A DNA stretch of 64,000 nucleotides from Escherichia coli (GTDB taxonomy: Bacteria > Pseudomonadota > Gammaproteobacteria > Enterobacterales > Enterobacteriaceae): the NCBI RefSeq assembly GCF_024223415.1, contig NZ_CP100500.1. One strand, given 5' to 3'. The stretch's first letter is position 1. The number at the start of each line of letters is the position of its first letter. Below the pieces are notes generated by a model. It had not been told where the DNA came from. It searched no databases and saw nothing but the letters and a program-made list of their open reading frames with translations. Shown piece after piece: positions 8,603 to 35,840 of this stretch. The position numbers were made by a program, and so were the translations under genes.

Positions 8603-9811
8603 GTGAAACGACTACAAGCATTTAAATTCCAGTTAAGACCCGGTGGTCAACAGGAGCGTGAAATGAGGCGCTTCGCAGGCGCATGTCGTTTCGTTTTCAA
8701 TCGTGCTCTGGCACGTCAGAATGAGAATCATGAGGTCGGTAATAAATACATCCCTTACGGGAAAATGGCTTCCTGGCTGGTTGAGTGGAAAAATGCCACT
8801 GAAACGCAATGGCTTAAAGATGCCCCGTCACAGCCATTGCAACAGTCACTGAAAGACCTTGAGCGGGCTTACAAAAACTTCTTCCAGAATCGGGCTGCTT
8901 TTCCCCGATTCAAAAAGCGGGGACAGAATGATGTATTCCGCTACCCGCAGGGCGTTAAGCTCGATCAGGAAAACAGCCGTATTTTTCTGCCGAAACTGGG
9001 CTGGATGCGCTACCGGAACAGCCGTCAGGTCACGGGTGTTGTGAAAAATGTCACTGTCAGCCAGTCCTGCGGTAAGTGGTACATCAGTATTCAGACAGAA
9101 AGTGAAGTATCAACTCCGGTTCACCCTTCAGCATCAATGGTCGGGCTGGATGCTGGCGTGGCTAAACTCGCCACGCTGTCAGATGGCACAGTCTTTGAGC
9201 CTGTAAACAGTTTTCAGAAAAACCAGAAGAAGCTGGCGAGACTTCAGCGACAGTTAAGCCGCAAGGTCAAATTCAGCAACAACTGGCAGAAGCAGAAACG
9301 CAAAATACAGCGACTGCATTCCTGTATCGCAAATATCCGCAGGGACTACCTTCACAAAGTCACAACGACCGTCAGCAAAAACCACGCAATGATAGTCATT
9401 GAGGATTTGAAGGTCAGCAACATGTCAAAGTCAGCAGCGGGTACGGTCAGCCAGCCGGGGCGCAATGTCCGGGCAAAATCAGGTTTAAACCGTTCGATAC
9501 TGGATCAGGGCTGGTATGAAATGCGCCGCCAGCTTGAGTACAAGCAGCTCTGGCGTGGCGGTCAGGTGCTTGCTGTTCCGCCAGCGTACACAAGCCAGCG
9601 TTGCGCGTGCTGTGGTCATACAGAGAAAGAAAACCGCCTGTCACAAAGTAAATTCAGATGCCAGGTATGTGGATATACAGCGAACGCCGATGTAAATGGC
9701 GCTCGTAACATTTTAGCGGCGGGGCACGCCGTTCTTGCCTGTGGAGAGATGGTGCAGTCAGGCCGCCCGTTGAAGCAGGAACCCACCGAAATGATTCAGG
9801 CGACAGCCTGA
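8603..9811 (+). CDS. tnpB: TnpB (IS605 OrfB family) RuvC-like RNA-guided endonuclease (402 aa), apparently intact
   Basis: ORF track; N-terminal [13 protein letters not shown]; Ruv[19 protein letters not shown], RuvC-II IEDLKV, zinc finger CACCGH...CQVCG, Ruv[13 protein letters not shown]. Confidence 0.9.
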
Positions 9812-29956: not shown

Positions 29957-30017
29957 GAGGTCAAATTGGGTGTCAGCGTTAATTCTGGCACCCAATAAGG
30001 AATTTGAGGCTATCTGA

Positions 30018-31229
30018 TCACCCCACTTCTGGTAACAACCCTGCCGCAATCAAAAATTGCACGCCAATCACAGCAATACCACAGAGAAACACCACCACCA
30101 GCGCCGGACGACCACCTTTCACCCGGTAACCCGCCTGAGGATTGTGCTTTCTGCTTTGCCAGGTCAACAGCGAAGGGATAATCAATGCCAGTACCGCCAG
30201 CGCCACACCGGCGTAACCCAGCGCCATCACAAATCCTCGTGGATAAAACAGTGCAAACGCCAACGGCGGCAGAAAGGTAATTGCACCAGTTTGCAACCGT
30301 CCACCAACGGTATTTGAACGCTGAAATAAATCAGCCAGATAATCAAATAAGCCTAACGCAACGCCGAGAAATGACGTGGCGAGGGCTAAATCAGCAAATA
30401 AATGCACTGCCAGCTCAACATGCGGAGAGGCCACCATTTCGCGTAACGCCTGTAACAGCCCGTTTAATCCAGCATGATTAGCCAGCAATCCCATAAAGGT
30501 TGTTGAATCAATGCTGCCAAGCGTTGCCACCTGCCAGAAAATATATGCCACCAAGGGGATCGCACTACCGGTTATAAACACCCAGCGTAGCTTACGAACG
30601 TTGCCATCCATATAGCTGACAATACTCGGCACGCTACCGTGAAAACCAAATGAGGTAAAAATCACCGGGATTGCTGACAGAGCCAGCCCCTGTTGCAACG
30701 GCAGGGTTAAAAGATTCACTTTGTGAATATGCGGTAGCAGCAATACCAGCATCACCACCAGAAAAATAATTTTGGCGCTGAACAGAAAACGGTTAAATAA
30801 ATCGACCAGCGATGTTCCAACACAAACCACGCCACCGGCAACAAAAGTGAACAACAGCACGCCAGCGGTTGCCGACATTGAAATACCTGTCCAGTCGCTG
30901 ATGCTGGAGGCCAACAATTCACCGGCACCGCTGATGTATGCCGCAGTCAGAGCATACATTAAGAACATCATACTGAAGCCCGTCAGCCATTGACCGTAGC
31001 GTCCCAGATAGCGTTTTGCCAGCGTGCCCAGACCGGTATCTGCCGGAACATGCTGGTACACCTCCAGCAGTAATAGCGCCGTGTAGCACATCAACGCCCA
31101 AAGCCCAATCAACAAGATTAACGTAACGCTAAAACCAACACCGGCCGCAGCCAGCGGCATTGCCAGCATGCCTGCGCCAATTGTGGTTCCCGCCACGATA
31201 AAAACACTTCCCAGGGTTCTGTTTTTCAC
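30018..31229 (-). CDS. tyrP: Tyrosine-specific transporter TyrP (403 aa)
   Basis: ORF track; [31 protein letters not shown]. Confidence 0.95.
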
Positions 31230-31320
31230 GCTTTCTTCTGTCCTGACGATCTTTATGAGTGATATCTGCGGCGCAGGTTAAGGCATAACGGCTGCTTCGT
31301 CAAACCGACGTTACATATGG

Positions 31321-31338
31321 TGTAAATATAAATGTACA
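31321..31338. promoter_or_regulatory. TyrR box upstream of tyrP
   Basis: TGTAAATATAAATGTACA fits TGTAAA-N6-TTTACA with one mismatch. Confidence 0.65.
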
Positions 31339-31419
31339 ATAAAAAGCATTCAGTCCTGCGCTGGCGCAAAGTCTTCATAAGCGGCAATCGCTACGCTAGG
31401 CTTTTTTTGAGGAGGGACG

Positions 31420-31659
31420 ATGGACTCTATTCACGGTCATGAAGTGTTAAATATGATGATTGAATCAGGCGAGCAATATACGCATGCCAGTCTGGAAGCT
31501 GCGATTAAAGCGCGTTTTGGTGAACAGGCACGTTTTCACACCTGCTCGGCAGAAGGGATGACAGCGGGAGAGCTGGTAGCGTTTCTGGCAGCAAAAGGCA
31601 AATTTATACCTTCGAAAGACGGTTTTTCGACCGTTCAGAGTAAGATTTGCCGTCACTGA
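31420..31659 (+). CDS. yecH: Small protein YecH (79 aa)
   Basis: ORF track; conserved position. Confidence 0.8.
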   Translation: MDSIHGHEVLNMMIESGEQYTHASLEAAIKARFGEQARFHTCSAEGMTAGELVAFLAAKGKFIPSKDGFSTVQSKICRH

Positions 31660-31666
31660 TTTGAAA

Positions 31667-31689
31667 CGGCGGCAGTAAACCTGCCGCCG
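31667..31689. terminator. Bidirectional hairpin between yecH and ftnA
   Basis: cggcggcag-taaac-ctgccgccg perfect stem. Confidence 0.6.
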
Positions 31690-31696
31690 GAGAGCA

Positions 31697-32194
31697 TTAG
31701 TTTTGTGTGTCGAGGGTAGAGAGTTCTTTGTCGATAAAATACAGACCTTCGCCGCTTTTGCCTGCCAGGCTTAATTTATCAATAATCGATTTGAACAGTT
31801 TCTCTTCTTCATGCTGCTCAGAAACATACCATTGCAGGAAATTAAATGTTGGGTAGTCCTGATTGGTCATTGCAGCATGAGCCAGTTCGTTAATTTTCTG
31901 GGTGATTAATTGTTCGTGTTTATAGGTTTCCTGGAATAATTCATCAAGTGAGGAATATTCAGCAAACGGAGATTCAACGGTATTAATACGCGGTAAATTG
32001 CCGGTATCAGTCAGGTAATCAAACAGACGCTGCATATGCGTCATCTCTTCCTGGGCGTGACGGCGCAGGAACGCGGCAGCACCTTCGAAGGTATGATAGC
32101 TGCACCAGGCGCTCATTTGCTGATAAAGCAGTGAAGAGTACAGTTCCAGGTTCATCTGCTCATTAAGTTTTTCAATCATTTCTGGTTTCAGCAT
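31697..32194 (-). CDS. ftnA: Ferritin FtnA (165 aa)
   Basis: ORF track 31697..32209; start [21 protein letters not shown]. Confidence 0.95.
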
Positions 32195-32364
32195 GATAGT
32201 GCTCCACAAAGGTTATATTTGTTGCTGTGGCGTCACTATAATTTGTTATTTTATTATTTGCAAAAGGTAAAATATAAACTTCAATTATTAAAAATACGAA
32301 TGGGAATAAAACGCATTACCGCTATTTCTTTAATCAGCGAAGATCCCCTCGCTGATTAAAATAT

Positions 32365-32688
32365 TTAGAGAAAGACAGGGAAGGCGGAATGATGGCACTG
32401 ATATGACAAAGTGAATTCCGTATTCAAACATAAGGAACCCGCAAAAAGGCTACAGTTGCCTACTGGCTGACCAAAGGGGACCGCGTGGGTATAGCCTTCC
32501 TGCTGGCATGCGCGATCGGCGATCCCGCGACTGACATAACGATCGGTATGGGCATGCTGCAAAAAAGCCTGGTCATAAACCAACCGTACAATACCTGTTG
32601 CCGCGTCAACTTCGCTCACATGGGCCTGGCGAGTAACCGTACACCCCGCCAGCGTTATTAATGAAAGAGTCAGAATCAGAAGTCTCAT
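32365..32688 (-). CDS. yecR: Lipoprotein YecR (107 aa)
   Basis: ORF track; lipobox LAGC. Confidence 0.8.
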   Translation of the reverse strand: MRLLILTLSLITLAGCTVTRQAHVSEVDAATGIVRLVYDQAFLQHAHTDRYVSRGIADRACQQEGYTHAVPFGQPVGNCSLFAGSLCLNTEFTLSYQCHHSAFPVFL

Positions 32689-32852
32689 GGTCCAGCCAGA
32701 AGAGTAAGAGAAAGCACTATTTTACGCGTTACAGCGCTGCGACAATGGCCGGAAAAGACGCCTGGCAGGCGCTATTTCTTGCCATCTGTAGGTGTCAGAA
32801 ATAGGGGGGCTGTTTTTTGATTATCATTTTTATAACATTAAAGGGGTATTTA

Positions 32853-32868
32853 TGTGATTTGCATCACA
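32853..32868. promoter_or_regulatory. CRP-like binding site upstream of azuC
   Basis: TGTGA-tttgca-TCACA palindrome read from sequence. Confidence 0.6.
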
Positions 32869-32950
32869 TAAAGATTGATTTTTGTGATGGTTGTCATATT
32901 ATAAGCGCAAAGACAATAACACCTGTATAACAAATAGTCGGAGTGCCGCG

Positions 32951-33037
32951 ATGAAACTGCGCAAAATCCTGAAAAGTATGTTCAATAACTATTGCAAGAC
33001 GTTCAAAGACGTACCGCCAGGCAATATGTTCCGATAA
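32951..33037 (+). CDS. azuC: Small protein AzuC (28 aa), encoded in the dual-function AzuCR RNA
   Basis: ATG at 32951 translates to MKLRKILKSMFNNYCKTFKDVPPGNMFR; followed by a terminator. Confidence 0.8.
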   Translation: MKLRKILKSMFNNYCKTFKDVPPGNMFR

Positions 33038-33042
33038 CAAAA

Positions 33043-33066
33043 AACCTGCTCCGGCAGGTTTTTTTG
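33043..33066 (+). terminator. Rho-independent terminator of azuC/AzuCR
   Basis: aacctgc-tccgg-caggttttttt. Confidence 0.75.
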
Positions 33067-33151
33067 TGTCCTGATGACGGTGGATGTGACTATCGCTGAA
33101 GATGTGAAGCCGCTACTATAACGGCTTTCAAAATGCTATCAGGAGTTTACG

Positions 33152-33403
33152 ATGTCCCAGCCGCTGAATGCCGATCAGGAACTGGTTTCTGATGTGGTTG
33201 CTTGCCAGTTGGTTATCAAACAAATTCTGGATGTTCTCGATGTAATCGCGCCCGTTGAAGTTCGTGAAAAAATGTCCAGTCAGCTGAAGAATATCGACTT
33301 TACTAACCATCCCGCCGCCGCAGACCCGGTCACCATGCGGGCAATCCAAAAAGCCATCGCGCTTATTGAACTCAAGTTTACCCCACAGGGTGAATCCCAT
33401 TAA
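33152..33403 (+). CDS. yecJ: YecJ, DUF2766 family (83 aa)
   Basis: ORF track. Confidence 0.8.
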
Positions 33404-33481
33404 AAAAACCGCTGCTTCAAACAGATGAGGCAGCGGTTTCTCAAAACCTTCATCGGCGCAATGCATTAGCGCCGATGATGA

Positions 33482-33985
33482 TCAATGCAGCTGGTGTGAC
33501 ACGACATTCAGAACATGTTGGTCGGTCTGCACAGGGCACATACCCGCAAGTTTCGCACTGCGCACTTCATCAAGAATGGTTTGCAGCAACAGACCATCAT
33601 GCTGCTGTTCTTTTTCCAGATCGCGCAGGAAATTGACGGTTGAATCATCATTCAGTTCTTTCGCTTCATCGGCTAACTGTGCCAACGTACTAGAACGTTG
33701 CTCGTATTCTTCCATCGTTTTTTGGAACAGTTCTTCCAGAGAGTTCAGTTTTTCACCGGGAACATCAATGGCTTTAACGATGGGGGTAGCGCCGACACTC
33801 TTCATAAAGTTAAACATGCGCATCATTTGGGTCACATTACTCTGTGCCTGGGCGCGAAGGAAAGTGGCGGTGCCGTTCAGACTCTGTTCAGAACACCAGT
33901 TACTCAGGTGAAGGTAGAGATTGGATGCGTAAAACTCGCGGTTCATTTGAGAGTTGAGTTTGAGAAGCATTCCAGCGGTTGCCAT
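33482..33985 (-). CDS. ftnB: Ferritin-like protein FtnB (167 aa)
   Basis: ORF track; ferritin fold residues. Confidence 0.9.
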
Positions 33986-34781
33986 ACCTAATATCCTTAT
34001 ATCCAGAAGTGGAGAGGTGCAAGATAAATCAAAACACCATAATTACTGTTTGCAGAATAATTCCTTTCTGCCGGTCCGAAATGTGATCGTGGAGTCAATT
34101 CTGACGATGATCTGAAATAAGAATAACGTCTGAACGGGTATAAGAAAATGCTTAAATCATCAAGTTTATATATTTTTACATTTCATTGATGAAATCAATG
34201 TAACTGCAATGAATTTTAATGATAGTGCTTTTTGTATCTTGTTGATATTAATCAATGAATTTGAATTCATGATGAAGTGATGATTTTATAAAGCGTTTTT
34301 TCATTTTTGCGAGATGGCTCTCATTATACGTGTTCTGTTAATTAATGAGCACAGTGATAATTAATGACGAAATGAATGACGTGCATTTTCCACATCTTTG
34401 AGTTGCGGTTATTACACCATTTCAAAAACTCAACGCCAGGTAATGCGGCCTATTGACTGGTTAAAAAGAAGACATCCCGCATGGGTACCAAAGACAACAA
34501 GGATTTCCAGGCTAATCTTATGGATTAATCTGCTGTGCATTCGACAATTTGTCTGACAAATTGGCTTTCCCTTATGTCTTTTCCCGCTAAATTTATGCAC
34601 GTTCTCACTGTAATTCTGCGATGTGATATTGCTCTCCTATGGAGAATTAATTTCTCGCTAAAACTATGTCAACACAGTCACTTATCTTTTAGTTAAAAGG
34701 TAATGCTTTGTTTTCCGATTAATTTAACGAATGTCATTCGTTTTTGCCCTACACAAAACGACACTAAAGCTGGAGAGAACC

Positions 34782-35771
34782 ATGCACAAATTTACTAAAG
34801 CCCTGGCAGCCATTGGTCTGGCAGCCGTTATGTCACAATCCGCTATGGCGGAGAACCTGAAGCTCGGTTTTCTGGTGAAGCAACCGGAAGAGCCGTGGTT
34901 CCAGACCGAATGGAAGTTTGCCGATAAAGCCGGGAAGGATTTAGGGTTTGAGGTTATTAAGATTGCCGTGCCGGATGGCGAAAAAACATTGAACGCGATC
35001 GACAGCCTGGCTGCCAGTGGCGCAAAAGGTTTCGTTATTTGTACTCCGGACCCCAAACTCGGCTCTGCCATCGTCGCGAAAGCGCGTGGCTACGATATGA
35101 AAGTCATTGCCGTGGATGACCAGTTTGTTAACGCCAAAGGTAAGCCAATGGATACCGTTCCGCTGGTGATGATGGCGGCGACTAAAATTGGCGAACGTCA
35201 GGGTCAGGAACTGTATAAAGAGATGCAGAAACGTGGCTGGGATGTCAAAGAAAGCGCGGTGATGGCGATTACCGCCAACGAACTGGATACGGCACGTCGC
35301 CGTACAACGGGTTCTATGGATGCGCTGAAAGCGGCCGGATTCCCGGAAAAACAAATTTATCAGGTACCTACCAAATCTAACGACATCCCGGGGGCATTTG
35401 ACGCTGCCAACTCAATGCTGGTTCAACATCCGGAAGTTAAACATTGGCTGATCGTCGGTATGAACGACAGCACCGTGCTGGGCGGCGTACGCGCGACGGA
35501 AGGTCAGGGCTTTAAAGCTGCCGATATCATCGGCATTGGCATTAACGGTGTGGATGCGGTGAGCGAACTGTCTAAAGCACAGGCAACCGGCTTCTACGGT
35601 TCCCTGCTGCCAAGCCCGGACGTACATGGCTATAAATCCAGCGAAATGCTTTACAACTGGGTAGCAAAAGACGTTGAACCGCCAAAATTTACCGAAGTTA
35701 CCGACGTGGTGCTGATCACGCGTGACAACTTTAAAGAAGAACTGGAGAAAAAAGGTTTAGGCGGTAAGTAA
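34782..35771 (+). CDS. araF: L-arabinose ABC transporter periplasmic binding protein AraF (329 aa)
   Basis: ORF track 34731..35771; start MHKFTKALAAIGLAAVMSQSAMA. Confidence 0.95.
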   Translation: MHKFTKALAAIGLAAVMSQSAMAENLKLGFLVKQPEEPWFQTEWKFADKAGKDLGFEVIKIAVPDGEKTLNAIDSLAASGAKGFVICTPDPKLGSAIVAKARGYDMKVIAVDDQFVNAKGKPMDTVPLVMMAATKIGERQGQELYKEMQKRGWDVKESAVMAITANELDTARRRTTGSMDALKAAGFPEKQIYQVPTKSNDIPGAFDAANSMLVQHPEVKHWLIVGMNDSTVLGGVRATEGQGFKAADIIGIGINGVDAVSELSKAQATGFYGSLLPSPDVHGYKSSEMLYNWVAKDVEPPKFTEVTDVVLITRDNFKEELEKKGLGGK

Positions 35772-35840
35772 TTTGCCGGAAAAATTCCCCTCTGCATGAT
35801 GCAGAGGGGGGGTGAACGACCAGTGATTCACGGAGACGTT

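Follow-up and report, generated by a model that had tools for sequence, protein, structure and literature searches.

The azuC/AzuCR locus of Escherichia coli and its two predicted CRP sites

The segment described here lies within a 64-kb stretch of E. coli DNA (the window, 64,000 nucleotides, numbered from its first letter) and, as judged by sequence identity, is azuC/AzuCR (IsrB/IS092; b4663, b4434), a known, annotated and functionally characterised gene. We read the locus as a self-contained, CRP-repressed unit that encodes the small protein AzuC on a dual-function RNA, with a probability of roughly 0.95. The derepression in Δcrp, the interaction with GlpD and the pairing with cadA, galE and FnrS are taken from the literature; the identity of the locus, its sequence features and their conservation were computed here.

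IS092/IsrB was first found as an sRNA candidate and was described by Raina et al. 2022 (PMC8915982), now under the name AzuCR, as an RNA of 164 nt that starts at K-12 position 1988001. AzuC is a 28-aa amphipathic inner-membrane protein that copurifies with GlpD and raises dehydrogenase activity, and both tagged-protein and ribosome-profiling evidence for it has been published (PMC8915982). By base pairing, AzuCR represses cadA and galE, and translation is repressed by FnrS, which pairs with a stretch 25–31 nt upstream of the ORF (PMC8915982). The level of AzuC-SPA was higher in glucose than in glycerol and was raised in Δcrp, and the RNA was abundant only in exponential growth on glucose (PMC8915982 and its bioRxiv version). 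The authors credited CRP-mediated repression, acting via “predicted CRP binding sites” (in the plural), and the sites are called “predicted” both there and in PMC12266141. Like SgrS-SgrT, Spot 42-SpfP and VcdRP, AzuCR combines two roles in one short transcript, that of a regulator acting by base pairing and that of an mRNA for a small protein of carbon metabolism; it differs from them in that the pairing region lies inside the ORF, so that translation and pairing compete (PMC8915982).

In the scheme that we propose, a sigma-70 promoter (TTGATT-16-TATTAT) between yecR and yecJ would drive an RNA of ~159–164 nt that ends at an intrinsic terminator. Transcription is high in glucose and is shut down by cAMP-CRP when glucose is lacking, probably via two tandem sites 30 bp apart. 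The RNA pairs through ORF-internal sequence with the cadA and galE mRNAs, leading to their repression, and the anaerobic sRNA FnrS pairs with CACCUGU in the 5' UTR, adding repression at the level of translation.

Identity and layout of the locus

The transcribed features and the neighbouring genes have the following positions in the window:

32365–32688, minus strand: yecR, neighbour of azuC, as in K-12.
32909..33067, plus strand: AzuCR (IsrB/IS092/azuR) transcript, transferred from K-12 1987843..1988001 through a gap-free alignment, the start being that of the annotation.
32920–32926, plus strand: 5'-UTR block CACCUGU, complementary to the FnrS 5' end (GCAGGUG); the published site of FnrS repression.
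32940–32943, plus strand: Shine-Dalgarno sequence GGAG, 7 nt before the ATG; conserved at 0.996.
32951–33037, plus strand: azuC CDS, with the ATG at 32951 and the TAA at 33035–33037; 28 codons plus stop, encoding MKLRKILKSMFNNYCKTFKDVPPGNMFR.
33037–33067, plus strand: intrinsic terminator, made up of an A-run, a CCUGC-UCCG-GCAGG hairpin and seven U; conserved at 0.95.
33152–33403, plus strand: yecJ, neighbour of azuC, as in K-12.

E. coli genomes matched the 501 bp around the ORF at 100%, and the feature at that position is annotated as “azuC: stress response protein AzuC”. Of 5426 complete E. coli genomes, 5419 contain the 501-bp region and 5418 a 231-bp core, the latter always at an identity of at least 95%. 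In K-12 MG1655, azuC (b4663, 1987873..1987959) is annotated within the ncRNA azuR (b4434, 1987843..1988001), between yecR and yecJ. The window carries this region in the reverse orientation, with no indels and two SNPs in ~330 bp, one of them in the spacer of CRP site 1 (TTTGCA in the window vs TTTGTA in K-12) and the other in the 5' UTR. It is the same gene with the same two neighbours, and the differences from K-12 are strain-level SNPs only.

An earlier note on this DNA had assigned the peptide to AzuC, a claim that a mismatch with the annotated protein would overturn. No such mismatch was found: the CDS is that of K-12 b4663 without differences, and the peptide matched the NCBIfam equivalog NF033642 with 75.9 bits (cut-off 30; E = 1.3e-21) over profile positions 1–26 of 26. 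The note's further assignment to the dual-function RNA AzuCR is borne out by the match of the stretch to K-12 azuC within azuR. A Pfam search with the peptide gave no match. An Rfam search of positions 30000–44000 at E ≤ 1 gave two sub-threshold matches (STnc370 on the minus strand, and rsmX), both from the terminator hairpin, and a search of seven related loci at the gathering threshold gave none. Rfam appears to be without a model for IsrB/AzuCR, and, since its matches were sub-threshold and driven by the terminator, it speaks neither for nor against the identification. The STnc370 match (33033–33097, minus strand; 33.4 bits compared to a gathering score of 54, E = 0.23) is essentially the symmetric azuC terminator on the opposite strand, and no gathering-level match to this family was seen in Salmonella or the other related loci searched.

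Read along the plus strand, positions 32850–33070 run from ttaTGTGATTTGCATCACAtaa through TTGATT, TTTTGTGATGGTTGTCATATTATAAG and a 42-nt leader containing GGAG to the ATG…TAA frame and AAAAAACCTGCTCCGGCAGGTTTTTTT. With the coordinates transferred from azuR, AzuCR is a discrete transcript of ~160 nt with its own promoter-like site and intrinsic terminator. The published sizes disagree: PMC8915982 gives 164 nt with the ORF at nt 40–126, and RefSeq, together with the stated +1 (1988001), gives 159 nt with the ATG at +43. The exact ends are therefore uncertain by a few nucleotides.

The CACCUGU block forms a 7-bp duplex with nt 1–7 of FnrS in a calculation restricted to the FnrS 5' end, and its position agrees with the published pairing region 25–31 nt upstream of the ORF. 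A prediction of the full-length AzuCR–FnrS duplex was uninformative, as 21 of 300 shuffles were equally good. In the alignment described below, the ACACCTG block is conserved, and most of the other genera have CACCTGC, a perfect complement to FnrS. The terminator, described as strong in the earlier note, has a predicted fold of −15.2 kcal/mol (z = −5.0; 0 of 200 shuffles as stable), with seven T at 33059–33065; among the relatives its loop varies and the stem has one G·U change. A simple terminator scan did not pick it up, and we think that this is because pairing between the A-run and the T-run lengthens the stem and consumes the T tail.

Coding sequence and its conservation

The 28-codon ORF reported in the earlier note was recovered, and its peptide reads exactly as quoted there. 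It is indeed missed by a length filter, as the note had stated: the ORF listing has a default threshold of 60 aa, and the six-frame list holds only a 48-aa ORF with a TTG start (32891..33037), of which azuC makes up the last 28 codons. On the minus strand, a second 48-aa ORF (32894–33040) overlaps azuC codon for codon, in a frame that is free of stops in 57 of 58 aligned sequences. TTA, CTA and TCA codons are rare, and in a gene of only 28 codons this is the most likely reason for the antisense ORF.

For homologues, we used 80 species-representative loci, with the neighbouring 83-aa YecJ as the anchor. The gene is present in 58 of the 80, and the 57 pattern-matched loci have it on the yecJ strand, 66–123 bp upstream of yecJ. 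The window and these 57 loci were combined into an alignment of 58 sequences, which covers azuC copies adjoining yecJ only. Some of the conservation stems from common descent, as the aligned sequences are related; the spacers and flanks, which have diverged, provide an internal control. The genera represented are Escherichia, the Citrobacter amalonaticus/sedlakii group, Enterobacter, Lelliottia, Leclercia and Kosakonia, together with Silvania, Pseudescherichia, Pseudocitrobacter, Huaxiibacter and Pseudenterobacter. A length of 27 aa, with the ending …GAMF, is found in most orthologues, and seven have a GTG start.

Among the yecJ-anchored loci, azuC was absent beside yecJ in Salmonella, C. koseri, the C. 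freundii group and Buttiauxella. In Salmonella enterica subsp. arizonae (locus L012, 1695–2333), a 212-aa ORF on the yecJ strand fills the slot between yecR and yecJ, with no trace of azuC. In Escherichia sp. MOD1-EC7003 (locus L003, 2246–2501), neither yecR nor azuC is present between ftnA and yecJ; a 28-bp remnant at 2387–2414 matches the azuC terminator, and nothing else of azuC is left.

The locus was discovered as an sRNA candidate, and its RNA has base-pairing targets, which would fit a purely non-coding IsrB/IS092, as first annotated, with an incidental ORF. The substitution pattern is that of a coding sequence, with non-majority fractions of 0.03, 0.07 and 0.24 at codon positions 1, 2 and 3. 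The third position varies in 23 of 26 codons, compared to 9 of 26 at positions 1 and 2, and pairwise codon differences comprise 9653 synonymous vs 5219 non-synonymous changes. The other sense frames contain stops (frame +2 in 58/58 sequences, frame +3 in 40/58), and, together with the three-base periodicity, this gives azuC the signature of a translated gene. The start codon, the Shine-Dalgarno sequence and the reading frame are kept in all 58 sequences, from at least 11 genera, and the motif TFKDVPPG is invariant. Third-position variation is low in codons 1–10 (0–0.23), below that of codons 11–25. This suggests, or is at least compatible with, an additional constraint on the RNA in codons 1–10, and it counts towards the non-coding interpretation. 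Given the periodicity, the conserved start, the NF033642 match and the published tagged protein and ribosome profiling, we regard an incidental ORF as extremely improbable and treat azuC as a protein-coding gene. Residues 1–21 have a helical hydrophobic moment of 0.50–0.60, a value matched by only 15–65 of 2000 shuffles, in agreement with the published description of an amphipathic inner-membrane protein.

CRP sites and promoter geometry

The promoter region contains two predicted CRP sites and a sigma-70 promoter, listed here with a comparator from elsewhere in the window:

32853–32868, no strand assigned: predicted CRP site 1, TGTGATTTGCATCACA; TGTGA-TTTGCA-TCACA, 10/10 in the core, centred at −48.5 from the annotated start at 32909.
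32875–32880, plus strand: −35 hexamer TTGATT of the sigma-70 promoter; conserved at 0.97 in the 58 sequences.
32883–32898, no strand assigned: predicted CRP site 2, TGTGATGGTTGTCATA; TGTGA-TGGTTG-TCATA, 9/10 with one mismatch, centred at −18.5.
32897–32902, plus strand: −10 hexamer TATTAT, ending 7 nt before the annotated start; conserved at 0.99.
41660–41675, no strand assigned: flhDC CRP site, TGTGATCTGCATCACA, a comparator outside azuC with an exact core, centred at −71.5 if the flhD 5' UTR is 198 nt long.

The promoter scan scored TTGATT-16-TATTAT with 9/12 matches. Exact matches to TGTGA-N6-TCACA occur twice in the 64-kb window (32853–32868 and 41660–41675), compared to an expectation of 0.02, and none of 100 shuffles contained two or more. 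Allowing one mismatch added two further sites in the window, 32883–32898 and 9040–9055. The latter, TGTGAAAAATGTCACT, lies within a gene of the InsQ/TnpB family (IS200/IS605) that is found in multiple copies per genome, and the CRP-like match there is probably due to chance. The earlier note had described a near-consensus CRP palindrome upstream of the ORF; the palindrome stands, but “near-consensus” is too weak a term for a perfect core. The second site, at 32883–32898, went unmentioned in that note and is added here.

The 22-bp extent of site 1 ends 3 bp before the −35 hexamer, and site 2 extends over the promoter spacer into the start of the −10 hexamer. CRP activation of class I and class II takes place from positions such as −41.5, −61.5 and −71.5; with centres at −48.5 and −18.5, neither site occupies an activating position. 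Bound at site 2, a CRP dimer would get in the way of RNA polymerase, making this the occluding operator, and the perfect distal site, which abuts the −35 hexamer and lies nearly three helical turns from site 2, would serve as a high-affinity anchor or partner. This division of labour is what we infer from the geometry alone.

Conservation across the alignment delineates both sites, and the majority-base frequencies in the 58 sequences were as follows:

Sequence upstream of site 1: 0.50.
Site 1, left half-site: 0.90, with GTGA in 58/58.
Site 1, spacer: 0.58, with 42 different spacers.
Site 1, right half-site: 0.98.
Site 2, half-sites: 0.99 for TGTGA and 1.00 for TCATA.
Site 2, spacer: 0.68, with 35 different spacers.

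The flanks of the sites have majority frequencies of 0.50–0.60. None of the 58 sequences departs from G2, T3, G4, A5, T12, C13 and C15 at site 1, and every one of them has the two sites at an offset of exactly 30 bp. The half-sites are thus kept while the spacers drift, which is the pattern of a phylogenetic footprint. The complete module, consisting of two CRP sites 30 bp apart, the promoter, the FnrS site, the ORF and the terminator, has been preserved beside yecJ in no fewer than 11 genera of Enterobacteriaceae.

We considered the possibility that site 1 serves a divergent yecR promoter, and this was ruled out. The site is present in 57 of 57 related azuC loci, and yecR lies within 2.5 kb upstream in only 18 of the 57, so the palindrome belongs to azuC. 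The unconserved sequence upstream of the site also speaks against an assignment to yecR.

The azuC and flhDC sites have the only two exact cores in the 64-kb window, and their 16-mers are identical at 15 of 16 positions. The flhD palindrome is the known CRP activating site of flhDC. The flhD ATG is at 41937, and we take the leader to be 198 nt, which places the start at 41739 and the CRP centre at −71.5; the annotated end of AsflhD, 1978395, is consistent with a leader of this length. The earlier note had called the two palindromes identically spaced. This is correct for the 6-bp gap between the half-sites, a gap common to all CRP sites, but not for the distance to the transcription start (−48.5 vs −71.5). 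The flhD CRP core is perfect in the window (…TCACA) vs TCACG in K-12 MG1655. Homology to K-12 ends near 41632, where MG1655 has IS1H, indicating that the strain of the window is without the IS1 insertion upstream of flhDC.

The 15/16 identity to the flhD site, and the placement of the palindrome upstream of the −35 hexamer, where activators usually bind, could be taken to mean that CRP activates azuC as it does flhDC, turning the gene on once glucose is exhausted. However, a centre at −48.5 is out of phase with the activating positions, and the second conserved site covers the −10 hexamer. Furthermore, AzuC-SPA is raised in Δcrp and the RNA is abundant only in exponential growth on glucose (PMC8915982). 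Activation is therefore very unlikely. The comparison with flhD could mislead, as both the position relative to the promoter and the sign of regulation differ: flhDC, a class I promoter, has a single site at −71.5 from which CRP activates, whereas azuC is repressed, with a pair of sites at −48.5 and −18.5. A parallel to the repressed azuC promoter, drawn in PMC8915982, is spf (Spot 42), likewise a small-RNA gene that is shut off by cAMP-CRP, its RNA being abundant in glucose. Where the two would differ is in the two tandem predicted CRP sites of azuC, 30 bp apart, and in its RNA being also an mRNA.

CRP and FNR at the distal palindrome

The consensus sequences of CRP and FNR share TGA-N6-TCA and differ at one symmetric position, which is G/C for CRP and T/A for FNR. 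At site 1, all 58 sequences have G and C as these discriminator bases, and the mean match is 9.4/10 to the CRP core compared to 7.5/10 to the FNR core. The E. coli site has 8/10 matches to the FNR pattern TTGAT-N4-ATCAA and lacks its outer T/A. The constancy of the G/C pair argues that site 1 has been maintained as a CRP-type site. Repression of azuC by CRP and the prediction of the sites reportedly go back to Hemm et al. 2010 (J Bacteriol 192:46).

Ekdahl et al. 2025 (PMC12266141) assigned an FNR motif for isrB to K-12 1988042–1988058, and observed derepression upon mutation of the motif or deletion of fnr. This motif maps to positions 32852–32868 of the window, i.e., to the perfect CRP palindrome. 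The main occupancy changes in that study lay upstream of the annotated CRP sites (PMC12266141). In addition, an FNR ChIP site that Myers et al. 2013 assigned to yecR converts to approximately K-12 1988001. These observations, and the core TGAT-N4-ATCA that is common to both consensus sequences, favour the view that the distal palindrome serves FNR in the main, as an operator for anaerobic repression, and is not a CRP site, or that both proteins share it. Against it, the symmetric positions by which GTGA/TCAC differs from TTGA/TCAA hold G and C in 58/58 sequences (mean core match 9.4 vs 7.5 of 10). Moreover, any mutation of the motif would also destroy CRP binding, and the reporters were read in stationary phase (PMC12266141), so the published mutant data do not separate CRP from FNR. 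On balance, we consider a primarily FNR-dependent or shared operator rather unlikely, and continue to treat site 1 as a CRP site.

A more tentative thought concerns how the two sets of observations could be combined. The palindrome at −48.5 may be a conserved, shared operator at which CRP, responding to carbon, and FNR, responding to oxygen, compete or alternate, or it may be that the 2025 study took the distal CRP site for an FNR site; we hold this to be possible, with the odds tilted against it. If the latter were the case, the phenotype of the “FNR-site” mutant would be a CRP phenotype.

As a discovery, azuC/AzuCR carries little weight: RefSeq annotates it, and papers from 2008 to 2025 have covered what it does and how CRP and FnrS regulate it. 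It does illustrate that a real gene of 28 codons, complete with operator and terminator, can be recognised from the raw sequence. What is added here is the second CRP site, the repressive geometry, the footprint in 58 sequences and the argument from the bases that discriminate CRP from FNR. For specialists, there are two modest points: the 30-bp offset between the two CRP sites, which is invariant in 58 sequences with half-sites that are nearly so, and the presence of CRP-type discriminator bases in 58/58, which bears on the recent assignment of the same bases to FNR.
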